Origin: Obrimoposthia wandeli
Taxonomy: Eukaryota
Direction of reading: 5' to 3'
DNA: 64,000 bases
Assembly (NCBI GenBank): GCA_977020255.1
Contig: CDROCS010005764.1
Coordinates: 62,001-126,000 of the forward strand
How positions within the stretch are numbered: the stretch's first letter is position 1; every line of letters begins with the position of its first letter. Under the pieces are notes generated by a model. The model searched no databases. It was not told the DNA's origin and worked only from the letters and a program-made list of their open reading frames with translations. Below, in pieces: positions 1 through 12,906 of the stretch. Made by a program: the position numbers and the translations under genes.

Positions 1-3000
1 AACATTTACAAAGTAAGAAAATCCATTCTTTATACATTCTTCCTTCCGATTCATCTTTAAATAAACCTATTTTACTATTAAATTTATTAGAATATAATGG
101 ATCATTCACATTATAATTTGACGTATCTAATAATCCATCTGCAATCATTTTTGGTAACAACTGTTTTCTTAAATTAACGTTTTTACATTCCAAAAAGAAT
201 GAGTCGGTATCACCGGCAACTATATTAATTGAACAATTGAATAAATTACGATATATTTGCAAATCATGATACTGAAGAGTATACATTCGTAATTTGCTAA
301 GGTCTAGTACAGCTTGGCCTATATAATTTGGTCGATCGAGACCAATAAAGTCTTTTCTTAATAAAACAGCTATTAAATTATCATGAATTTCAATTGTTCG
401 TTGAAACATAGGTTTGCTAGTATATGTAATTAATTTTGTAGAACTAGTGCAGATGCGAAGATTCAACCGTTTCTTAACATTTTCAACGGTCTTTCCATAC
501 AAACTAACATTTTTAAGTTTATAAAAATCTTTGTCACATTTATTCGTAGCTTGTGATCTCATTTCTGAATTATATTCTATATATTCTGCGAATATCTTAG
601 CCTGAGAGAATTTTACTGCTCGATGAATAATTGTTACCACTGCTCCTAAACTAACATACATCTGCAATAGTCTCCAATGAATAACATAATGACTTTTTGG
701 CGAATGCGTCATTAAAAGTTTTTCAACTTTTTTACCAGGTGGACATTTCTTTTCTGGAGCTATAGGAAGATCGTCTAAAAAGTCATGAAGGTTTTCTGGT
801 ATTACCAAGTCTACTTCCATAACATAACCATATTCAATATGCTCCATGTTCACATTTTTCATTTCATGCAATATTTCGTTTAATTTTATATCATCAAGAA
901 TCCATTCAAAATCTCCTTTTGGTAAAGGTTGATCAAGAGCCCATCCATATAAATTATTAACATCTATATATAAAAGACTTGTTTCTTCATCAGCGACTAC
1001 ATGATGCTTATTGACAAATGTCATTCCTCCTCGTATACCCGAAGAAATCATGTTGTACATTTCAGGATCCTGCATCAGTTCAACCTTATGTTTTAACATT
1101 TTTAGAGCACTTGCCCAACTCAACCCAGGAATGCTAAAAAAGTTAAGTGGTTCTAAACCATCTTCACTGAGAGCTTTTCTTCTGAATGTTTGAAACACGT
1201 CAGCTAATAAATATACGTCAGTCTTTAAGTAAACTAACATATAATCCAACATATTTCTACAATTGGTTATTTTCCAAACATCTTGTGCTTTTTGATATTC
1301 AGTGTCTGTGATTTTATCATTCCATTTTACAGGTAAACTTAACTTATTCTGGAGGACATTTAATAATGTAGCAAAATCATATGGGAATATTCCTTTGCCA
1401 TCAATAAGTTTAGATGGAAAAACTGATCTTGTTAATGGAATAGTTGGTAATTTACCGGCTAAATTTTCCAAAGATGATTGCAAAAATTGCAAAGAATCTA
1501 TAAATCTCAGAGTTATTTTACCTAATCTTACAATCATGGCTTGAAACTTTTCCGTTGATTGTGGTATAATATTTATATCCCTGTCAGTAAATTTATTCAA
1601 TGCATGTTTTAAAATATGATGTAAATCATAACCTCTGAGATTATGAAACACAATAGGTAAAGTTGGACGAAGTTTTCTTGATAAATTACATTCATTGCAT
1701 GCAGGACCTAGATACTTGCCAGTAAAGTGATCATGATCTTTAACATATTTTTCAGATGATTCGTGACATAAATAACATTCATCGGCATTGCTAAATGTAT
1801 GAATCTCTGCATTTGTTAAGGGAATCATTACGTTTTTAAGAGCATCTAAATACCATGGCAAAACCTTTTCTTTAGCCAAGTTCTCTATTGACTGAAGAAA
1901 TTTAACTATGCAGTCATCACCAACATTATGTTGATACTGGGTTTCAATTTCATCTGTACTCATAAATAACATACCAGATGCGACAGGCATATGCTTTTGA
2001 TGATAACTCTCATCTGGTACTAATACAGATTCAAAATCAGCGTAAACGACATATTTCGGTGATATAGTTTTTGACCAATCGTTGAATTTAACGTACTTAT
2101 TCTTAGGCATAGTATACATTGTAGTGCTTTCTTGATTATAGTCACATAAAACTTTATGCTTTTCTAATGACAAATCGGTTTTGAAACCATGTAAACACTT
2201 TTCACACCATTTTCTGCTAATTCTAGTCGTTCCAGTTCGAATATTTAATAGTCGGTTAAGACATCTTATTCCTATATAATGAAACCGTTCCTTGGATTCT
2301 AGTAACAATAAATTAACTATAGTTCCTTCCTTCATTTTTGATTTGTATGCAACATCGATATAAGGATTCTTGATAACATCAGTTTTTGATTCTTTTTCAC
2401 TTACCTCGTTGAATATGAATACATTTATTATTATACCAGGATTTTGCCTTTCAAATTTTGATATATTTGATATTTTCATAGGCATGTCTTCGAAATTATA
2501 TACAAAATCATTTAAAAATCTTTCATATTGGCTTGGTCTATTTCTATGTAATTCTATTTCATTATATTTAAGTATTGACAATATTGCATAAATAAAGCAA
2601 AGATTATCAGAGTTTTGAATATTTACGACTGCTTTAGATTTTGTAAGAGAATTTGGTGATTTAATATATGAATGACCTGACAATGCACAAATTTGACTAT
2701 ATTTAGTAGCAATAAATGCATATTCAAGTATATTCATCAATTTCCAACCACTACCCTTTTCTGAATATTCTTCAACTTTATTTTCCATTGTATCTTCCAT
2801 TTCTGAAATTATAGCATGTGAAAAAATCATTGCTCGATGTGAAGCATACCATTCTTTAGTTTCTCCATCATTCTTTTCAAACCTCATCCTGATGATGTAT
2901 TGAATCTTTGCATTTCCCATTAATTGCACTATTCTTTCTAGTTCGTTTAATAATGAATCTGGAACCTTAAGACTTACAAGATTGAGATGATCTACTTTCA

Positions 3001-3376
3001 TGGATATCATTGAATAACTATTTTCTAACGATGTTTTAGTCTGTATATTGTCATTTATTTTACGTTTTCGTGACGGAGTAGGAGCTGGAATTACTATGTT
3101 TGATGGTTCATTAATTATATCAGTTCTTTTTCTTAAAGCCGGTACTTTAAATAATGTTTTCTTACTATCATTTTTATATTCTTTTAAATGACTAACATGT
3201 CGACTATAAAATAAGTTGTAATCAACATTTTCAGTGCTTAAACATTGTGGACATATGAAATAATTTATCCTTTTGTATGAATAACAATAATAATTTTTCA
3301 TTATATCATGACATACTTGAGGATTAAAATGTGTTTCCGATGAACAAAAATTTGAATAAGTTTTACATATACTCAT
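1..3376 (-). CDS. pPolB: Protein-primed family B DNA polymerase (pPolB) with N-terminal terminal-protein-like region and EndoVII-like Zn insert; 3' end truncated by the window edge
   Basis: Manual minus-strand translation from ATG 3376 gives GSGW (2755-2744), ExoI YADFES, CYLC..KDHDHFTGKYLGPACNECNL, ExoII FHNLRGYD, motif A YIDVNNLYG, motif B KLKNVSLYGKT and motif C AGDTDS. The frame is the same at 3376, 2755 and the window edge. It is absent from the ORF track, presumably because no stop falls in the window. Confidence 0.95.
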   Translation of the reverse strand, partial: MSICKTYSNFCSSETHFNPQVCHDIMKNYYCYSYKRINYFICPQCLSTENVDYNLFYSRHVSHLKEYKNDSKKTLFKVPALRKRTDIINEPSNIVIPAPTPSRKRKINDNIQTKTSLENSYSMISMKVDHLNLVSLKVPDSLLNELERIVQLMGNAKIQYIIRMRFEKNDGETKEWYASHRAMIFSHAIISEMEDTMENKVEEYSEKGSGWKLMNILEYAFIATKYSQICALSGHSYIKSPNSLTKSKAVVNIQNSDNLCFIYAILSILKYNEIELHRNRPSQYERFLNDFVYNFEDMPMKISNISKFERQNPGIIINVFIFNEVSEKESKTDVIKNPYIDVAYKSKMKEGTIVNLLLLESKERFHYIGIRCLNRLLNIRTGTTRISRKWCEKCLHGFKTDLSLEKHKVLCDYNQESTTMYTMPKNKYVKFNDWSKTISPKYVVYADFESVLVPDESYHQKHMPVASGMLFMSTDEIETQYQHNVGDDCIVKFLQSIENLAKEKVLPWYLDALKNVMIPLTNAEIHTFSNADECYLCHESSEKYVKDHDHFTGKYLGPACNECNLSRKLRPTLPIVFHNLRGYDLHHILKHALNKFTDRDINIIPQSTEKFQAMIVRLGKITLRFIDSLQFLQSSLENLAGKLPTIPLTRSVFPSKLIDGKGIFPYDFATLLNVLQNKLSLPVKWNDKITDTEYQKAQDVWKITNCRNMLDYMLVYLKTDVYLLADVFQTFRRKALSEDGLEPLNFFSIPGLSWASALKMLKHKVELMQDPEMYNMISSGIRGGMTFVNKHHVVADEETSLLYIDVNNLYGWALDQPLPKGDFEWILDDIKLNEILHEMKNVNMEHIEYGYVMEVDLVIPENLHDFLDDLPIAPEKKCPPGKKVEKLLMTHSPKSHYVIHWRLLQMYVSLGAVVTIIHRAVKFSQAKIFAEYIEYNSEMRSQATNKCDKDFYKLKNVSLYGKTVENVKKRLNLRICTSSTKLITYTSKPMFQRTIEIHDNLIAVLLRKDFIGLDRPNYIGQAVLDLSKLRMYTLQYHDLQIYRNLFNCSINIVAGDTDSFFLECKNVNLRKQLLPKMIADGLLDTSNYNVNDPLYSNKFNSKIGLFKDESEGRMYKEWIFLLCKC

Positions 3377-3443
3377 CTGATGATATGATTGATTTGATTG
3401 GACTTGAGATATTGATTGATTTGTATACTGAATAAAAAATATA

Positions 3444-3454
3444 TATATAAATAC
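3444..3454 (+). promoter_or_regulatory. Canonical TATA box TATATAAATAC upstream of the TBP-like gene (identical copy at 3914-3924 upstream of the SSB-like gene)
   Basis: The identical 11-mer starts 35 and 44 nt upstream of the two ATGs. Confidence 0.55.
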
Positions 3455-3478
3455 AATAATTTAATTATTTTACTTACA

Positions 3479-4033
3479 ATGTTAACAAATATTAATTATA
3501 AAGGAATTTGCTTAGATGATGTATCCAAATTAAAATTTCGAACACGACCAGAACAATACGTTTATAAAGCCAAAGATTATACAATACTTATTTTTAGAAA
3601 TAAGAAATGCAGGATTATGGGATGTAAGGTACCTATTAAAAATATTTCTTACCCTTTAAGAATAAATATACTTGGTATTCAATCAATTACGGTATGTGAA
3701 AATTTAGATCAAAGTATCAATCTATTTAAATTATGGAATGTGTTACGTAATACATGTTCATTTGACCCTGAGGTTTTCCCAGGCTTAAGATTAAATATTT
3801 TCAATCCATTGTGTGTAAATATTTTCACATCTGGAAAGGTCGTAATTTTAGGTCTTAGAAATTTAGATTTTCAAAATCAAGTTAATGATATCATGACATA
3901 CATTAAAAAAAATTATATAAATACGAAACAATTTCTAATTAAATCATTCAATTTTAAATGTCTTATAAAGCCGTTCAAAAGTATTATGAGTATGATATGT
4001 TCTTCTTGGCATCTGCATGGATTCATCCAATGA
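3479..4033 (+). CDS. TATA-box-binding-protein (TBP)-like protein; the likely native stop is at ~3920
   Basis: Two TBP-type repeats: LTNINYKG...YTILIFRNKKCRIMG and IQSITVCENL..INLFKL...SFDPEVFPGLRL...VNIFTSGKVVILG. Canonical TBP reads YEPELFPGLIYR...LLIFVSGKIVLTG. The ATG at 3479 is preferred to the TTG start at 3416 in the ORF track. Confidence 0.85.
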   Translation: MLTNINYKGICLDDVSKLKFRTRPEQYVYKAKDYTILIFRNKKCRIMGCKVPIKNISYPLRINILGIQSITVCENLDQSINLFKLWNVLRNTCSFDPEVFPGLRLNIFNPLCVNIFTSGKVVILGLRNLDFQNQVNDIMTYIKKNYINTKQFLIKSFNFKCLIKPFKSIMSMICSSWHLHGFIQ

Positions 4034-4344
4034 CTATGCCAGTGACATTATCGAAAACTTCGTACAATTACCGAGTCTCTGATTTTGACGACAAAGACAT
4101 TCAACAATTCAATGAAGTCGTCAAATATTTGAAAATTGACATTGAACTTGAGAATGAGGGTATATTTATGCGCGGAGATAAGTGCAAATTTTATGATTGT
4201 TCCGGAACAAAGATTTCGGATATTCAAGAAGATGGAAGAAGTTGGATGCTCGAAATAAAAATTCTCGGATATAAAATAAATAAAAAGAATGAAACAACTC
4301 TCATCTGGAGGATTCATACAGCGACCGAATATTTTGATGTTTAA
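3958..4344 (+). CDS. Hypothetical protein, possibly an OB-fold single-stranded DNA-binding protein (T7 gp2.5/DUF2738-like)
   Basis: 128-aa ORF with good start context. The C-terminal pattern KFYD..G..I..I......MLEIKILGYKI......LIWRIH resembles viral OB-fold SSBs. This is a resemblance only. Confidence 0.45.
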   Translation: MSYKAVQKYYEYDMFFLASAWIHPMTMPVTLSKTSYNYRVSDFDDKDIQQFNEVVKYLKIDIELENEGIFMRGDKCKFYDCSGTKISDIQEDGRSWMLEIKILGYKINKKNETTLIWRIHTATEYFDV

Positions 4345-4425
4345 TAAATATTTAATAAAATGTTGTTATTGTTATAAACATGTACTTATTCTGATATATT
4401 TATTTTATATTAATATTTATATAAA

Positions 4426-5055
4426 ATGTTATTAACAAACAATTCGACTTTTCAAGTAGTAGGACCAAGTGGTAGTGGAAAAACTTTATTTGTTTGTAAA
4501 TTATTAAATTCAAAAATGTTTAAAAATAAATTTAATAAAATATATTGGCATCAAGGTGGTGACGGAGAAGCTTGTTTAACAAACCAAGAATTTAATAAAA
4601 TAAAAAACATTAAGATTATTAACGGTTTTGATGAAAATTGGACGACAAGACTCGTAAAAGGTGATGTAATTGTTATTGATGACTTATATCAAGAGGCTAA
4701 CAAAGAATCTGATTTTAATGATTTATTTACAAAAATTGCAAGACATAGAGAAGTTACTGTAATTTTTATAACCCAAACTTTATTTCATCAAGGAGGAAAT
4801 CATCGTACTCGTAATCTTAATGTACATTATTTGATTTTATTCAAAAATCCTAGAGATCAAACAGTGATAGATTTTATTGCTCGTCAAGCATTTCCTCATA
4901 ACAAGAGTTATTTAATTGATGCGTTTCATGATGCTACATCTTTACCTCATGGTTATTTATTTTTAAATTTTACTCAATCATGTCCTGATGATTTAAGAAT
5001 TGTTACTGATATATTTAACCGTAATGGTATTACAGTCTATAAACAAAATAAATAA
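4426..5055 (+). CDS. A32/FtsK-like genome packaging ATPase
   Basis: Walker A GPSGSGKT, Walker B VIVIDDL, and ARH...IFITQ and YLILFKNPRD motifs typical of Polinton ATPases. Confidence 0.95.
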   Translation: MLLTNNSTFQVVGPSGSGKTLFVCKLLNSKMFKNKFNKIYWHQGGDGEACLTNQEFNKIKNIKIINGFDENWTTRLVKGDVIVIDDLYQEANKESDFNDLFTKIARHREVTVIFITQTLFHQGGNHRTRNLNVHYLILFKNPRDQTVIDFIARQAFPHNKSYLIDAFHDATSLPHGYLFLNFTQSCPDDLRIVTDIFNRNGITVYKQNK

Positions 5056-5075
5056 TAATAATGTTTTAAAATAAA

Positions 5076-5486
5076 ATGAATTTTAAAAAGAGTATTCTTA
5101 AACATAGTAAAAGGACAGATAAAGATGAAGTTAAAAAATTAATAAACACTGTATTATATGATCGTAATAATATTGAATTTTCAAAAAATTTACCTTATTT
5201 TAAAACCTTAATTGACGTATCAAAAACGAATAAAATGAAAATGTTGAAATCATTTCCAATTTATGTAGTTGATGATTTAATAAAAATTTTAAATAAAATA
5301 ATTTATGGTAAAATTAAACCTGATCCTAATATTTTAAAATATAAAAATTCATTAATAAATTTAGCAAATTCACGTGGTAAAATTAATAAAAGAAACATTA
5401 TTTATAATCAAAATGGCGGATTCCTATTGGCCATACTGCCCGCTATAGCATCAGTAATAGCTGGTCTTATAACTTCAAGATATTAG
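5076..5486 (+). CDS. Basic core protein with an adenovirus pX-like C-terminus
   Basis: Lys-rich body ending QNGG|FLLAILPAIASVIAGLI, like the adenoviral pX motif GGFLPALIPIIAAAI that follows a protease site. Confidence 0.7.
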   Translation: MNFKKSILKHSKRTDKDEVKKLINTVLYDRNNIEFSKNLPYFKTLIDVSKTNKMKMLKSFPIYVVDDLIKILNKIIYGKIKPDPNILKYKNSLINLANSRGKINKRNIIYNQNGGFLLAILPAIASVIAGLITSRY

Positions 5487-5554
5487 AAGTTTAAAAAAAA
5501 AAAATTATAAAATTATATAAGAGTCTTACAAAGTAACATTAATAAGAAACTTAC

Positions 5555-5826
5555 ATTAAATGTTGAAGTAGATTCTCCCGATGTACCAGGAATCATTGTT
5601 GTTGATGCTGATGTAGGAATCATTACCGCGGCTGCTAGTTTAAAACAATATTAAAATTAATTTTAAAAAGAAAAAAAAAATACTTTTTATGTTTCTTACT
5701 CTGCATATGAGCATCCATTGAATATTTATTATTCATTGGTCCTGTTTGACATATTTGGCAATTAAATATAAATATAAATCATAATTAAAATATATATATA
5801 TATATATAATAAACTCACGTATTCAT
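5555..5826 (-). CDS. Candidate spliced small gene with a matrin/JAZ-type C2H2 zinc finger
   Basis: 5760-5683 on the minus strand reads CQICQTGPMNNKYSMDAHMQSKKHKK. It is flanked by ATGAATAC|GTGAGT (5826-5813), further GT donors (5699, 5554) and a pyrimidine-rich TAG acceptor (5637-5635). The exon structure is uncertain. Confidence 0.5.
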
Positions 5827-6153
5827 TTTGAGTCTTGATTTATTTAAATTAAATAAAAATAACAAAATAGTAAATTATATTTAATTTAACATTTCAATTT
5901 ATAATATATATCCTATTATGTAATTTCAATTATTGATAATAATATAATTATCTCAATTGCTACAATTGAATTGTGCCTATTTAATTAAGATAGTTGTCTT
6001 AATAACGAAAATTATAATAATATTAAATAATTACATTCTTTCGTTTTATACAAATATATAAACAGATTAAAATATATTTAACTTTTATAATAATGGGGAT
6101 AAACAATACAAAGTTGTCTAACTTATTTATAAATTTAAATTCTTCATGCTGCA

Positions 6154-7180
6154 ATGGAAAAGATTTGGAACAATCCAGAAGATCCAGACGGGTATACAGG
6201 GTTAGAAAAATTGGCAAAAAGAGTCAAACAATCAAAAACAAACACACAAAAATGGTTAAGAAATGAATTATCATATAGTTTGAATAAACCTTTAAGACGT
6301 AAATTTCCTACTAGATCATATAAAACTAATGGTATTAATTCTTTATGGCAGATGGATTTAATGGAAATGATACCTTATTCTTCAGTAAATAACGGATTCA
6401 AGTATATTTTGACTTGTATTGATGTATTTAGTCGTTTTGCAAGGGCAGTTGGTAATAAATCAAAATCGGGTATTGATTTATTACATGCAATAGAATCTTT
6501 AATTGTTGATGATGTACCAGTAAATATTCAAACCGATGAAGGTAAAGAATTTTTTAATTCACATGTTAAGAAATTATTTAAAACTGAAAATATCAAACAT
6601 TATTCAGTATATTCTCAATATAAAGCTGCAGTAGTTGAAAGATTTAATAGAACGTTAAGAGAACGGTTAATGAAATATTTTACTAAACAAGGTAATAAGA
6701 AATGGGTGAATGTATTACCAAAAATTATTTATGCTTATAATAATTCTAAACATAGAGGTTTAGATGGTTTAAAACCTGTAGATGTAAATAATAAAAATGA
6801 ATTTGATATTTTGTTGAAACAAAATCCAAAAGAAAAGAAAGTTAAATCTATATATAAAATTGATGATTATGTTCGAATATCAAAAAATAAGTACAAGTCC
6901 ATTTATTAAAAATTTTAATCAAAATTGGAGTGATGATTTTTTTCAAATTCATGATATTAATTATAAACAAAATCCAATAATGTATATTTTAAAAGATATT
7001 GATAACGTCATCATCAAAGGAAAATTTTATAAACAAGAGTTACAATTAATTGATAAACCTAAACTATATCGAATACAAGAAATTTTAGAAACTAAAGGTC
7101 GTGGTAAGAATAAACAATATTACGTAAAGTGGCACGGATACTCTGAACCTTCTAAGATATTTGCTTCTCAAATTGAATAA
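6154..7180 (+). pseudogene. Retroviral-type (RVE) DDE integrase with C-terminal chromodomain, split by a +1 frameshift
   Basis: WQMDL, IQTDEGKEF and KAAVVERFNRTL give an intact D,D,E triad. ORFs 6154-6909 and 6860-7180 fuse as VRISK-ISTSPF if one A is removed from the A6 run at 6882-6887. The C-terminus YRIQEIL..KQYYVKWHGY is chromodomain-like. The frameshift could be an assembly error. Confidence 0.9.
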
Positions 7181-8185
7181 TGTCAAAATATATTATTTTA
7201 CCTAGTAATAGTTGTCCAACCTAACAATACAGCCAATCAATTTACTGTAGATTGGGAAAACTCTCTAAATTTAGATGGTGAATGGGAGGTTGCCTTGACT
7301 GAATTTGTATTTAATTATACTCCTTTAACAATACAAACTAATTCAAAAATACTTTATAAAACAGAAAAGATAGAAATGAAAACTGTCGATGTATCTTTTG
7401 CAATTTTAAATGGATTAATTTTTAATAATTTAAATAATGTTTTCAATTTCAAAATTACAAAGAATCAAAAATTAGAAATAAGTACAATTAACAGTATTCA
7501 TCGAATGTTGTTAAAATTCGAATCTTTAGAAGAATCAAAAATTATAGGTTTTAATGAAATACAAAAAATTTCTAGTCATGTTATAACAAGTGATGAAATT
7601 GTTGACATAAATAAAAATATTCATGCTAAAATGAGAATTACAATTTATTCTTTAGCTGAATATGAATACGAAATCAAATTTAATCAAAATTATTTGATAC
7701 AAGATAGTTCTTCATTATGTAATATTATAGCCAGTAAATGTAATGCGATTTTTAAAAGCTGTAATATAGATTCAAACGGATTATTTGATATTTTAATAAA
7801 GAAAAATGTAAAATCAGTTTTATTTGACGAAAAACTTGCATCTTTATTAGGTTTAAATAATGTTTTCTTTGAGAAACGAATTAAAGGTTTTCAAGAACCA
7901 ACGCTTTCTAGCTCATATAATCAAATGTATATTTATACTAGTTTAACAGATTCTGTCTTAGTAGGATCTGATTATGTTCCACTGTTAAAGTCTATTTGGT
8001 TAAAATCATTAAAATATCGATATGGAGATGTAGTAAATGTTAAAATTGATAATCCAATGTACTTGAAAATGAGAGATTCAAGTATTAATAGAATCGAGGT
8101 AAATATACGTGATGATTCTGGTAATTTAATTCCATTTTCATATGGAGCAAAAACTAGTTTGACTCTTCATTTACGTAAAGTATAA
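7180..8185 (+). pseudogene. Minor capsid protein (penton), frameshifted near codon 13
   Basis: ATG 7180 gives MSKYIILPSNSCP; after a frame change at ~7219 it continues PNNTANQFTVDWENSLNLDGEWEVALTEF into ORF 7295-8185. The C-terminus IEVNIRDDSGNLIPF...TLHLRK is typical of Polinton pentons. Confidence 0.85.
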
Positions 8186-8222
8186 ACAATATAAATATAT
8201 TTAAAATATAAAAATATATAAA

Positions 8223-8624
8223 ATGAATACATCAATTATAAATTTTTTTAGCAAACGTCAACAGGGCGGTGAACTTCCCTATTTCATTGGGAAGCAATAT
8301 GGATCTGGTTGGTTTCAAACTATTTCTAGATTAGCTATTCCATTTATTAAAAAAGCTGGTTTATCAGCAGCTACAAGTGCTGCCAATGCAATTGGCGAAA
8401 CGGTAGGAACTGCGTTAACAAATCCAAAAAACTTAATTTCATCTCTCAAAGAAAATACAATCAAAGAAGTCAAAACTTTGATTCCAAAATTAAAAAATAA
8501 TGCTGTTGAGAGTTTAAATAAAGTCGCAAATTGTGTTGAACAAAATGGAAAGGGTCTTAAACGTAAAATAAATAATTTAAATAGTATAAACAAACGTCTT
8601 AAAGGTACTATTTTCCAAAAATGA
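8223..8624 (+). CDS. Conserved Polinton virion protein, pVI-like amphipathic membrane-active protein
   Basis: QQGG...QYGSGWFQTISRLAIPFIKKAG: a glycine cleavage motif followed by an amphipathic helix, located just upstream of the MCP. Confidence 0.7.
   Translation: MNTSIINFFSKRQQGGELPYFIGKQYGSGWFQTISRLAIPFIKKAGLSAATSAANAIGETVGTALTNPKNLISSLKENTIKEVKTLIPKLKNNAVESLNKVANCVEQNGKGLKRKINNLNSINKRLKGTIFQK
8585..8592 (+). promoter_or_regulatory. Variant TATA element TATAAACA upstream of the MCP (other copies at 4373, 5038, 6057, 8181, 10222)
   Basis: The same 8-mer lies 36-53 nt upstream of five ATGs (ATPase, pX-like, pVI-like, MCP, DEDD-like) and 97 nt upstream of the integrase ATG. Confidence 0.6.
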
Positions 8625-9841
8625 CTAGTATAAAATCTGAATTGTGTATTTTCGATAGACCACTATCTCAAGTAGTGATTGAAAATTCAAGTTTTGAAGA
8701 AATATTTCCAATCAATTCAATTACTGGTGGAAATTTAAATGACATAGAATTTAATATTCATGCATCTGAAGAAGATTATCTGGATTTGAATGATACTTTG
8801 TTAAATATTAAATTAAAAGTTGTAAATGAAGATGGTACTGATTTAATGAAAGATAACGATGTAACCCCAAATAATTACATGTTTCAAACTTTGTTTAGAG
8901 ATGTTATTCTAACACTTAATAATGTAAAGGTTGAAGGAGGAAATGGAACGTATGCTCATAAGGCTATATTCGATACTCTTTTGAATTTTAGTAGTGATAC
9001 CAAGTATACTAACCTTGAATGTTCCGGGTATGATGATGATGCAAAAAATCGTAAACAATGGATTAGTGAATCTAAAATATTTTCATTGTGTAATTCAATT
9101 AGATTAGATTTCTTTGATCAACCAAAATATTTGATTCCAGGGATTAATGTTCATTTGAGATTTATGAGAAATCAGCATAATCTTTCGCTCTATTCAGAAA
9201 CTTCAAAACCAATTATTCAAATTCTAGATGCTAGATTGTATGTTAGAAGAGTAAAAGTTGATTCTTCAGTAATGATTGGACATCAGTTAGGTTTGCAAAG
9301 TCAGAATGCAGTTTACCCAATTAGAAAAACTCAGTTAGTAACATATTCAATTCCTCAGGGTTCTTTGGAACTTAATAAAGATCAAATATTCGGAGACTAT
9401 CGTTTACCCAAGTTCATTTTGATTGCTTTCAAAGATACACCTCAGGGTGGTAAGGAATACAAAGTTAAATCTTCTACGTTCAATACATTTAATGTTTCAA
9501 CAATATCATTAGCTAGAAATACAGATTATCGAGAAACTTATAATCTAGATAATAACAATTTTTCATTAGCATATATGCAATCAATTATTCGAAATATGAA
9601 TATTTTAGATAAAAACGTGAATAATGGTATCAGATTTTCTGATTTTAAATCAGGAAGTTCGATTTTCACTTTTCTATTAGCACCAGATTTTGATATAAAC
9701 ACTACTCAAGTGCCTAAAACTGGTAATTTAAGACTTGAAATTAGATTTAATTCTCCTTTGGTTGTTCCAACAAGTGTTTTGATTTACGGAATATTTGATT
9801 CCGAAATTCAGATTACGAAAAATAAAACTGTGATTGTATGA
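8621..9841 (+). CDS. Major capsid protein (double jelly-roll, hexon-like)
   Basis: Intact 406-aa ORF. KSEL.IF...QVVIE...EEIFPI...IEFNI...DYLDLNDTLL at the N-terminus and FLLAPD...GNLRLEIRF at the C-terminus match Polinton MCPs. Confidence 0.92.
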   Translation: MTSIKSELCIFDRPLSQVVIENSSFEEIFPINSITGGNLNDIEFNIHASEEDYLDLNDTLLNIKLKVVNEDGTDLMKDNDVTPNNYMFQTLFRDVILTLNNVKVEGGNGTYAHKAIFDTLLNFSSDTKYTNLECSGYDDDAKNRKQWISESKIFSLCNSIRLDFFDQPKYLIPGINVHLRFMRNQHNLSLYSETSKPIIQILDARLYVRRVKVDSSVMIGHQLGLQSQNAVYPIRKTQLVTYSIPQGSLELNKDQIFGDYRLPKFILIAFKDTPQGGKEYKVKSSTFNTFNVSTISLARNTDYRETYNLDNNNFSLAYMQSIIRNMNILDKNVNNGIRFSDFKSGSSIFTFLLAPDFDINTTQVPKTGNLRLEIRFNSPLVVPTSVLIYGIFDSEIQITKNKTVIV

Positions 9842-10214
9842 AGTAAGCTTATTGTATATTATATTCTTTATTTAAATTAGTACTTTAGAAATTTATAAAT
9901 CCGGAAAAATATTATTGAATAAAAAATTTAATGGAGTTTATTCATTGGATAAAATTCCATCATTAAAACCCGGAGGCTACATTATCAATACTCATACTTC
10001 AAATCTAACAGGCGAACATTGGATAGCAATATTTGTTGACAGATTCGAGATTCGAGTGTTTGATCCTTTTGGATTCTATTATCCTTCAAAGTTGGTGTCT
10101 ACACTTGAAAAAGAAAACATTCCAGTCTACTATAATAGAGTTAAATGTCAGAATCCATTAACTAAAAACTGCGGACCTCTGAGTCTTTTATGGTTGAAAC
10201 TTCAACACAAATAA
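9838..10214 (+). CDS. Adenain-like (C5 family) cysteine protease; exons 9838-9842 and 9881-10214
   Basis: Catalytic GEHW, FDPFG, Q and NCG motifs. Removing GTAAGC...TTAG (9843-9880) gives in-frame MNTLEIYKSGKILLNKKFNGVYSLD. Confidence 0.9.
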
Positions 10215-10266
10215 TTTTAAGTATAAACAAATATATCATTATAGTATTTCATTTTATTTTTTTCAA

Positions 10267-10719
10267 ATGGCTTTTATTGATTTAGAATGTTTTATTGATA
10301 ATAATGGAGAATATATTCCAAAGGAATTATGTATAATGTATGTGAATGATATGACTTGTCCATTTCATTACGTGTTTAAAAATCAAATACCATGGAGTAG
10401 TTTATCATTTAAAGTTAAAAGAAAAAATCTATATTTGATAAATCATCATCATCAGTTATCCTGGTTTGAAGGTGAAAGCTCTGATATTCATATTGATGAT
10501 GTTGAAACAATATTCTATGTTATGGATTCTATTGATGGAAAGACAATTAATTTAGTGAAACGAATGTTTCCAAATTTGAGAATTGTGAATTATAATAAAA
10601 GTTTCAAAAATTTAAAGAAAATGCCAAAAAATATTCGATGTCCGTTTAGAAAACACGGAAAACATTGTGCTTATTTGAAATGTTTTTCTCTATGTATTGA
10701 TTATGTAAATTGTATATAA
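10267..10719 (+). CDS. DEDD-superfamily exonuclease-like protein with a Cys/His-rich C-terminus
   Basis: N-terminal FIDLECF (ExoI D-x-E), then KEL..., HHHQLSW and a C-terminal CPFRKHGKHCA. This pattern resembles accessory ORFs of arthropod Polintons. Confidence 0.6.
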   Translation: MAFIDLECFIDNNGEYIPKELCIMYVNDMTCPFHYVFKNQIPWSSLSFKVKRKNLYLINHHHQLSWFEGESSDIHIDDVETIFYVMDSIDGKTINLVKRMFPNLRIVNYNKSFKNLKKMPKNIRCPFRKHGKHCAYLKCFSLCIDYVNCI

Positions 10720-10820
10720 ATATATTTATTAAGGATATTTTATTTTAATATATAATTTATGTTATTTAAATAAATTTTACCATATTTCTTTAGATGCATA
10801 AGCCTGGAAAAAACTTTGAT

Positions 10821-11099
10821 CTAAATTTTCACATAGAATAGTGTGTGTATGATTACGTAATACATTCCTTAACTGATAAGAGTGAACTTTAGCTTAAATT
10901 TTCACATAGAATAGTGTGTGTGTTAAAAACCACATTCCTTAACTGATAAGAGTGAACTTTAGACTAAATTTTCACATAGAATAGTGTGTGTATGATTACG
11001 TAATACATTCCTTAACTGATAAGAGTGAACTTTAGACTAAATTTTCACATAGAATAGTGTGTGTATGATTACGTAATACATTCCTTAACTGATAAGAGT
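10821..11099. repeat. Four tandem ~73-bp repeats in the Polinton subterminal region
   Basis: Unit TAAATTTTCACATAGAATAGTGTGTG...CATTCCTTAACTGATAAGAGTG starts at 10822, 10895, 10965 and 11038. Confidence 0.95.
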
Positions 11100-11259
11100 A
11101 GAATAATTGATTGAATACTATATAATTTCTTAATTTATGCCAAATCTGACCCTTAACTTGTGAACGACCATAAAATTTTTACATGAATAAACTCGTAATA
11201 TGTTGACGAATACAACCATGTACTTGAAACTATGAAATTCCAACTTTTTTAACCCTTCA

Positions 11260-12140
11260 TCTATGGACGACCATACCTATATGGATGAATTCGTCTTCTA
11301 AAGATGAATACAACCATGTATTAAAACTTTGACATTTAAAACTTGATTTGGTCTATATCCCGACCCCTTCATATATGACCGACCATACTTTATGGGTGAC
11401 TTCGTCTTCTAAAGATGATTACAACCATGTACTAAAACCTTGATATTTTAATTTTTTTTTTTAGTCCGACCCTTTGACCTATGGACGACCACAACCCTTT
11501 AGATGTGACGGTCAACCATAGTTGACCTTAATTATACCTTCAAAGTTTCAAGTCAAAACTGACCTTGACCCTTTGATTTATGGACGACCACAACCCTTTA
11601 GATGTGATGGCCAACTATAGTTGACCTTAATTATACCTTCAAAGTTTCAAGTCAAAACTGACCTTGACCCTTTGACCTATGGACGACCACAACCCTTTTG
11701 ATGTGATGGCCAACCATAGACGGTCATGACCATACCTTCAAAGTTTCAAGTCAAAACTGACCTTGACCCTTTGACCTATGGACGACCATAGTGATATATC
11801 AAAGAAGGGTGGAGACTAGATCAATTGACCCTTCCCCCCTCCCTCCTTAAAACCTTCAAGTCAAAACTGACCTTGACCCTTTCATCTATGGACGACCACA
11901 ACCCCTTGGGTATGTTGGCCGACCATAGACGGTCACGACCATACCTTCAAACCTTCATAACCTTTCTGAGCCAGACCCTTATGGTGTGGCAAGACACCCT
12001 TATGGTATGACACCTTATGGTGTGACATTTCTATGGTGAGGCAACATATACCCTTATGGTGTGGCAAGATACCCTTATGGTATGACACCCTTTAACTTGG
12101 TGTGCGCACACCACCCTTTAACTTGGTGTGCGCACACAGG
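11260..12140. repeat. Polinton terminal-region repeat array (99-bp units plus shorter CCCTTATGGT and CCCTTTAACTTGGTGTGCGCACAC repeats)
   Basis: GTCAAAACTGACCTTGACCCTTT recurs, with TGACCTTGA at 11560, 11659, 11758 and 11868. ATGGACGACCA recurs throughout. Confidence 0.9.
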
Positions 12141-12179
12141 GGGGGGTCAAGTGGTCTAGACTCCATCCTTCTACCTACT

Positions 12180-12906
12180 TATATCTTATATATTGCTAAA
12201 ACACGACAACATGTCAACGTATATACGTATACTTGGAAATAGCTGATTGCTTTTTGACCCTTCATCGACTGTGCGGAAGAATGCTGACTTGATAATAATA
12301 TAATCATCTAAAATTATTAAAAAAAATAAATAAAATAGACGAATTTCGCGACGATTTGCTAAAATTATACCAACAACTGCAATGTTCAATTTAAGGAGTT
12401 TTCAAGCAAAATAGAGAAGAAAAGAAATTATTAATGGTTAATTCGAACCTTTTAAATCCTTTAATGATTTATATTATAATTAATAATTCAAACAATGCTT
12501 CTTTATCAGATATATCTTCAACAATTTCTTTCAGATCATTGTCATTCTCAAATACATTTCAAAGTAATTCTTCTTGTTTTCTTGTTTTCATTTTCATTTT
12601 ATTTTAAAATAAAAATTAATAAAAAAAAATATTTTTTTTCGTATAAAAATATTTTTATACTAAATATACTATATAAAGATATATAAATTGTAATATGTCC
12701 ATTGAACCGAATTTTCCATTCAAGGGTTAATAGTTGACGATATTGGGTAGTTATCTTTGAACCCATTTTTTTTGGGTGAAGGGACCTCCCTTGTTTGTTG
12801 CTTTTTCAATTTTTTTTCAAAATTTCACTCCACACACATGCACGGTTTTAAAGGTAGTCCCCAGGGGAGGGGGAGGGGTGGATTAGACCGGACACACCCA
12901 CCTACT
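12180..12906. mobile_element. Terminal fragment of a second Polinton family
   Basis: Ends GTGGATTAGACCGGACACACCCACCTACT, sharing the pattern AGTAGGT-N11-GTCTA-N2-CCAC with the first terminus at 12151-12179. It has a GC-rich subterminal block and degraded minus-strand coding fragments. Confidence 0.7.

Follow-up and report, generated by a model that had tools for sequence, protein, structure and literature searches.

The closest described counterparts of the gene discussed here are viral proteins with the fold of the TATA-binding protein (TBP). The TBP mimics of beta- and gamma-herpesviruses (KSHV ORF24, EBV BcRF1 and HCMV UL87) use a TATTWAA late box, and ORF24 is described as a large protein within a six-member complex that keeps four wedging phenylalanines and is missing the acidic TFIIB residues (bioRxiv 2025.08.25.672222). 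The TBPs of NCLDVs and the poxvirus factors VETF-L and VITF-3L are stage-specific factors of the same fold, the kind of role proposed below for the Polinton protein TBP-L; according to PMC12917281, they work for a virus-encoded RNA polymerase and have been expanded, not cut down. Loss of wedging phenylalanines together with a changed DNA preference is reported for TRF2 and for the TBP of Giardia (PMC10005294, PMC12209930), the latter having lost three phenylalanines, keeping normal helices and binding single-stranded DNA in an organism without TFIIB (PMC12209930).

Adintoviruses and Polintons have pPolB, the rve-chromo integrase, the packaging ATPase and terminal inverted repeats in common with the element analysed here, whose putative protease frame would correspond to theirs (Starrett et al. 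2021, PMC8502044). In the text of that paper, 'TBP' and 'TATA' occur in a single figure legend, in which a 'TBP' label is given without discussion for MELD viruses with adintovirus-like PolB, and 'promoter' gives no match. This label was the only trace of a Polinton TBP in the literature search, which covered the running text of open papers; the searched texts of Polinton papers gave no match for TATA or TBP wording. The original prediction had placed TBP outside the core Polinton gene set, a point to be refined by the label on one MELD-virus map (Starrett et al. 2021). A paper on Cymbomonas mentions TBPs in mirusvirus-like elements, which are distinct from Polintons.

The TBP-L gene, its element and its fold

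The window, i.e. the whole stretch of 64,000 nucleotides that was analysed, contains part of a Polinton of ~13.8 kb, the host element of TBP-L, which extends left of the window and in which the Polinton/adintovirus hallmarks pPolB, rve integrase and packaging ATPase are present. The features are:

2..3460, - strand, protein-primed PolB (pPolB) frame with an Endonuclease VII domain, continuing left of the window; PF03175 is found beside TBP-L copies of the family
3444..3451, + strand, canonical-type TATA sequence TATATAAA, 35 nt upstream of the TBP-L start; candidate early promoter
3479..4033, + strand, TBP-like gene (TBP-L), its fold formed by residues 1-144 (3479-3910), its tail differing by copy
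3914-3921, + strand, TATATAAA associated with ORF128
3958..4344, + strand, ORF128, predicted T7-gp2.5-like single-stranded DNA-binding protein (model and structure matches)
4373..4380, + strand, TATAAACA box, intergenic, 53 nt upstream of the ATPase start
4426..5055, + strand, A32-like packaging ATPase (Pox_A32, E 1.4e-6)
5038..5045, + strand, TATAAACA box inside the 3' end of the ATPase reading frame, 38 nt upstream of ORF136
5076..5486, + strand, ORF136, conserved small virion-module gene, no Pfam match
6154..7180, + strand, chromodomain-bearing rve integrase, encoded across two frames in the window copy (6154-6909, 6863-7180)
7180..8185, + strand, putative minor capsid gene by size, position and conservation, no Pfam match, broken near its 5' end
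8181..8188, + strand, TATAAACA box, 42 nt before ORF133
8223..8624, + strand, ORF133, conserved small gene ahead of the putative major capsid gene
8585..8592, + strand, TATAAACA box, 36 nt before the putative major capsid gene
8621..9841, + strand, gene for 406 aa, taken as the putative major capsid gene from its size, position and conservation, without a Pfam match
9876..10214, + strand, adenain-like protease frame (Peptidase_C5, E 0.0011, below cut-off), no in-frame ATG
10222..10229, + strand, TATAAACA box, intergenic, 45 nt before ORF150
10267..10719, + strand, ORF150, conserved gene, no Pfam match
10764..12202, no strand, right terminal inverted repeat, tandemly repetitive inside, with its partner to the left of the window

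An inverted match to the right terminal repeat (10764-12202) lies to the left of the window, at 80-88%. Between 6154 and 10214 three genes of the window copy, those for the integrase, the putative minor capsid protein and the protease, are broken by either decay or assembly error. TBP-L had been predicted to lie between pPolB and the ATPase; pPolB is indeed its head-to-head neighbour, but the SSB-fold gene ORF128 separates it from the ATPase. The model of ORF128 (pLDDT 87) finds its best matches in Enc34 SSB (Z 7.8) and T7 gp2.5 (Z 7.0), both of middling Z, and the protein matches NCLDV OB-fold proteins at E 1e-5, with no Pfam family over the cut-off. ORF128 was considered as a transcription partner of TBP-L and ruled out by its SSB-type fold.

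The TBP-like motifs originally quoted for the ORF at 3479 are present, and Pfam matches TBP (PF00352) at residues 67-130 with an E-value of 5.5e-12 (45.8 bits, cut-off 22.9). Pfam sees only the second repeat; the first is without both helices. TBP accounted for 35 of the 36 sequences returned by a PDB sequence search, the best match being archaeal TBP from Sulfolobus (1mp9, E 1.5e-14), and hhalign gave 99.5% for TBP-L against TBP. The expected length of ~147 aa does not apply to the window copy, which encodes 184 aa, and survives as part of a range, with 147-159 aa in the top 20 of at least 150 copies (154 aa in 14/20). Because variation among these top 20 is confined to the tail past residue ~143, the analysis was restricted to residues 1-144.

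The structure model, built with 14 relatives, is a two-repeat saddle of high confidence (pLDDT 93, pTM 0.82). Foldseek against the PDB gave a best E-value of 3e-9 (TM 0.73), all 44 matches at E<=0.001 outranked everything else, and every listed match was a TBP chain. A second structural aligner matched 144 of 144 residues with TBP from yeast and human (Z 13.5, rmsd 2.5), compared with Z 6.7 for the nearest unrelated fold. The fold is thus clear from Pfam, the PDB sequence search, Foldseek and the structural aligner, and the two-repeat TBP-like protein of the original prediction is borne out by the model and the full-length alignment.

A canonical TBP lobe consists of five strands and two helices (PMC12917281). 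In the predicted structure the C-lobe of TBP-L is canonical, with both helices present, and the N-lobe consists of strands only, with neither helix. Its segments are 13 and 14 residues shorter than canonical ones, and the lobe landmarks of TBP-L are spaced by 35 and 77 residues, those of the 13 canonical TBPs compared by 48-50 and, for the most part, 86-92. Longer members of the family (~160-185 aa) align across the whole N-lobe, and the family therefore spans a range of reduction. At ~145 aa, TBP-L is the smallest two-lobed TBP met in the analysis.

Residues of the DNA face

Two pairs of phenylalanines let TBP kink DNA, at steps 1/2 and 7/8, and cofactors bind on its convex side (PMC10005294). 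In the residue survey, 174 filtered TBP-L proteins were reduced to 112 representatives under 60% identity and aligned; the filter itself required M47, N114, F116 and G119, which were already invariant in unfiltered alignments. Residues were compared with what we take to be their equivalents in yeast TBP numbering, and these equivalences were verified by profile alignment for residues 30-142.

In common with cellular TBP (PF00352; yeast 1YTB and 7O4I, human 5FUR, Sulfolobus 1MP9), to whose saddle 144 residues align, TBP-L keeps three of the four phenylalanines (F39 in 111/112 representatives, F100 in 112/112, and the filter-forced F116), the DNA-contacting Asn of the N-lobe (N4, 97/112), the C-lobe Pro and the acidic stirrup for TFIIB (E98 in 110/112; position 96 in 105/112, as E in 96 and D in 9). 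P24 is likewise kept, in 103/112. It is unlike cellular TBP in its length of ~145 aa, in the absence of N-lobe helices and in the fourth phenylalanine site, which, mapped by spacing, is occupied by K, P, R or Q in the 112 representatives. The Asn site of the C-lobe is replaced by Ser (81/112) or Thr (31/112), leaving the symmetric Asn pair incomplete. By position, the changes to the DNA face are Asn at 6 (75/112), Ser/Thr at 69, Thr/Ser at 71, and Arg at 45 in 112/112, a site where the filter also admitted Lys. The result is a polar DNA face (Asn, Arg, Ser/Thr, Asn) vs usually hydrophobic or Asn sites in cellular TBPs, to which identity is 22-24%. The element had been proposed to carry a basal transcription factor; a TBP-type protein is encoded, but it is a reduced, re-surfaced TBP with a matching promoter-like box rather than a plain basal factor, and its presumed role would be in transcription.

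TBP-L shares with TRF2 and Giardia TBP the loss of wedging phenylalanine, and differs from both in that they are cellular. TRF2 keeps the normal TBP helices. TBP-L is like the herpesvirus mimics in pairing a viral TBP fold with a non-canonical TATA-like candidate late box in a system with no viral RNA polymerase, and both have a DNA face rich in polar residues (bioRxiv 2025.08.25.672222). The boxes themselves differ, TATAAACA vs TATTWAA, and the likeness would be one of function only. Unlike ORF24, TBP-L is a bare ~145-aa domain with its acidic residues kept, and its structural likeness to BcRF1 is weak (E 3e-3, TM 0.31); Foldseek matches to NCLDV TBPs start at E 1.7e-7. None of the ORFs scanned in TBP-L elements is a herpesvirus-type complex partner, and Pfam found neither a viral TFIIB nor an RNA polymerase in 13 window frames and 17 unassigned ORFs of related loci. 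The resemblance to the herpesvirus proteins, as judged by this comparison, is analogy and not membership.

Copies, relatives and origin of TBP-L

At least 150 copies of TBP-L are present at 99-100% identity in the genome, and relatives at 41-56% identity occur in other Polinton lineages of the genome and in metagenomes, the further families within the genome standing at 43-56%. The profile search returned 52 representatives with E<=1e-30; relaxing the threshold to E<=1e-10 gave 592, among them ordinary TBPs. A phage collection gave no match, and the IMG/VR scan gave just five distant TBPs for the short family and none for the long family. The top matches in the ESM Atlas are TBP-domain clusters (0.95-0.97), which give no host range for TBP-L because the cluster taxa rest on 1-9 records.

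In a careful tree of 54 rows, a hand-picked subset from which the very long L022 row was excluded, the 26 TBP-L rows form one branch with a support of 100/100 and a stem of 1.03. The host TBP exon falls among eukaryotic TBPs, in agreement with a quick tree of 88 rows, and three canonical-like IMG/VR TBPs fall outside the TBP-L branch. Values of dN/dS from 0.11 to 0.48 over 25 pairs with pS 0.1-0.5, many of which share one sequence, point to purifying selection on the family. The original prediction had named as contrary to its claim a neutral, recent capture of host TBP found in this copy alone. Such an origin has a negligible probability: copies and relatives abound, TBP-L is nearer to other Polinton TBP-Ls (41-56% full-length) than to the host TBP exon (35% over 78 residues), and the separate branch together with dN/dS well below 1 rules such a capture out. 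TBP-L is a genuine, conserved, Polinton-specific TBP variant.

The host genome itself (1.35 Gb, AT-rich, eukaryotic and presumably that of an animal) contains TBP and TFIIB genes split by introns, and a single contig (L054 / L055) has two canonical TBP paralogues arranged back to back. Intronless, divergent two-repeat TBP-like genes are found on two further contigs (L057 1066-1758; L058), one of them near Polinton fragments, and group with canonical TBPs, apart from TBP-L. A set of short, fast-evolving, near-canonical TBPs without context (P0139, P0154, P0156, P0160, P0103, P0279-P0283) may represent other viral TBP lineages.

In 21 of the 28 metagenome loci TBP-L is accompanied by one or more of the other genes known from the window element, in three (L026, L041, L048) by the capsid-type module, and on seven short contigs TBP-L stands alone. 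One long-form member precedes an ATPase and an integrase on a Polinton fragment (L089 1-3823) made up of a PLA2-like gene, the TBP-L gene, the ATPase, a C2H2 zinc-finger gene and the integrase; the presence of this fragment, the only GTDB match with context, in a Bacteroidota MAG is likely contamination. Near TBP-L in related loci, a ubiquitin-conjugating enzyme gene (L041 225-719) and a dual-specificity phosphatase gene (L035 4008-4316) were seen.

In most loci TBP-L adjoins pPolB and the SSB-fold gene, an order which would suit a protein acting in replication or integration, by bending or holding terminal-repeat DNA or by binding single strands, with the box described below being unrelated. 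Three DNA-face substitutions of TBP-L also resemble those of Giardia TBP (V to N, N to S, V to T), according to a mapping made in this analysis from the list in PMC12209930. However, Giardia TBP has lost three phenylalanines and has no TFIIB to work with, whereas TBP-L has lost one and keeps the acidic stirrup; in the metagenome locus L048, moreover, TBP-L follows ORF150 rather than adjoining the ATPase. A role in replication would also leave the co-occurrence of TBP-L and the box unexplained, and is considered improbable.

The upstream box and a candidate late programme

Alignment of gene starts produced the motif (T)ATAAACA before late-type genes. Its core ATAAAC, usually as TATAAACA, is the top 6-mer: of 35 windows upstream of five late-type genes, taken from 11 lineages, 27 contain it. 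Two of the lineage representatives share 87% DNA identity; 2000 shuffles gave a mean of 1.8 and a maximum of 7, and the reverse complement occurs in 0/35. By gene, it precedes the ATPase in 10/10, ORF136 in 6/8, ORF133 in 2/7, the putative major capsid gene in 5/6 and ORF150 in 4/4, these five classes having been picked once the motif had been seen; in the classes left out it was found before the putative minor capsid gene in 2/6, the protease in 0/2 and the integrase in 1/8. It is also present at four starts in copies examined later (L137, L144 twice, L146). TBP-L genes themselves are never preceded by it (0/11), and in early-type windows TATATA occurs in 9/17 (shuffle mean 2.0) and ATAAAC in 1/17.

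All nine TATAAACA occurrences in the window element lie on the + strand, the coding strand of the late module (4373-10229): five lie 36-53 nt upstream of a start, one precedes the integrase by 97 nt, and the other three are internal. Across the whole window 22 were observed vs 12.4 expected. Boxes overlap genes in three reading frames, and others lie in intergenic DNA. The terminal YKQ of the ATPase is encoded as TAT AAA CAA in 11/11 copies keeping YKQ (of 13), against a background of 74% for TAT and 76% for AAA, and this codon use points to a constraint at the level of DNA. The varied frames, the intergenic boxes and the codon use rule out coding constraint as the origin of the box.

The box often stands at the end of the preceding gene and resembles AATAAA, as a 3'-end or termination signal of that gene would, and promoter signals common to virophages and their helper giant viruses have been described, which would allow it to be the promoter of a helper. 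Yet its distance is fixed to the downstream ATG though the upstream gene varies (-32 to -52 before the ATPase in 10/10), which suits the position of a TATA element, and it can precede the upstream stop codon. A termination signal or helper promoter is very unlikely for these reasons, and the TATAAACA box is better treated as a candidate late promoter matched to TBP-L. A non-standard start signal common to most packaging and capsid-type genes suggests that the element switches on its own late genes.

Forkhead factors recognise RYAAAYA, and the host genome has several TBP-like genes, two of them intronless, from which it could be argued that a host protein (TBP, a paralogue or a forkhead factor) reads the box while TBP-L serves, for example, as a decoy tying up host TFIIB. 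Wild-type TBP has been crystallised with a C(-25) TATA variant (PDB 1qn3), and host TBP could therefore read the box; a decoy would also fit the TFIIB stirrup, which is among the best-kept features of TBP-L. Unlike an enhancer site, though, the box is strictly oriented (27 vs 0) and confined to a narrow distance, and it is missing from a co-resident Polinton lineage without its own TBP-L that is exposed to the same host factors (ATAAAC in 0/44 windows, which are not independent because this control is one decayed family). One control copy has ATAAAC at about -18, just beyond the counted window, and TBP-L fragments from another, nested element adjoin three control copies. The conserved three phenylalanines and family-specific polar residues of the DNA face would be needless in a pure decoy. 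A host reader is accordingly rated as unlikely.

The preferred reading is that TBP-L, a Polinton-specific miniaturised TATA-binding protein, probably acts as an early-to-late switch. Host TBP would read the ordinary TATA sequences, and pPolB, the SSB and TBP-L would be made first; TBP-L would then occupy the TATAAACA box on late-gene promoters, preferring it to TATAAAAG or scrambled DNA. In TBP the 5' step belongs to the C-lobe phenylalanine pair and the 3' step to that of the N-lobe, and because of this arrangement the most-changed lobe would face the part of the box which departs from TATAWAWR: the C-lobe of TBP-L, with both wedging phenylalanines and Pro kept, would face the TATA half, and the remodelled N-lobe the AACA half. 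The acidic stirrup, absent in ORF24 and kept here, makes direct use of host TFIIB plausible, and it would recruit TFIIB and Pol II. Packaging and capsid-type transcripts would start 5-25 nt upstream of the ATG, 25-32 nt downstream of the box. Some cofactors use the N-lobe helices of TBP, and loss of these helices would free TBP-L from host control of the TFIID, TFIIA and Mot1 type. It may well be that a broad Polinton clade runs such a one-protein late-transcription system, in which TBP-L has been re-specified to TATAAACA, takes host TFIIB and Pol II and escapes TFIID-type control.

If this is true, Polintons with TBP-L are autonomous nuclear viruses with a staged programme that was reached independently of herpesviruses and poxviruses, and the series from long to short TBP-L records a stepwise loss of the regulatory surface of TBP. 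TBP-L and its matching box would provide a concrete mechanism for gene timing in Polintons, with a bearing on autonomy versus helper dependence, and the box could mark early and late genes in unannotated elements. The mechanism is tractable, involving one 145-residue protein and short DNA probes. TBP-L is also a natural experiment in what TBP can lose (both N-lobe helices and one phenylalanine) and illustrates how its minor-groove face may be re-specified.

Other elements were encountered alongside those with TBP-L. A second Polinton lineage (L116 8925-9587, L117, L133-L148) combines one structural module with two kinds of pPolB in different copies, and its gene starts end in A-rich runs without the ATAAAC box. 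An element of the TBP-L group is nested in a second-lineage pPolB gene (L148 9850-10000, L149), with similar juxtapositions in L137 and L152. IMG/VR scans with the ATPase alone and with a capsid alignment gave no matches, and one with an ATPase alignment found three loci of PLV-like type, at 25-26% identity. As a weak control, two of these three were inspected and have neither a TBP-L match nor a box before the ATPase; ATAAAC is in range before 1/12 ORFs in each of the two, near background. The PLV-like contig L108 has a repeated motif of its own, ATCCAGAG, upstream of several genes.
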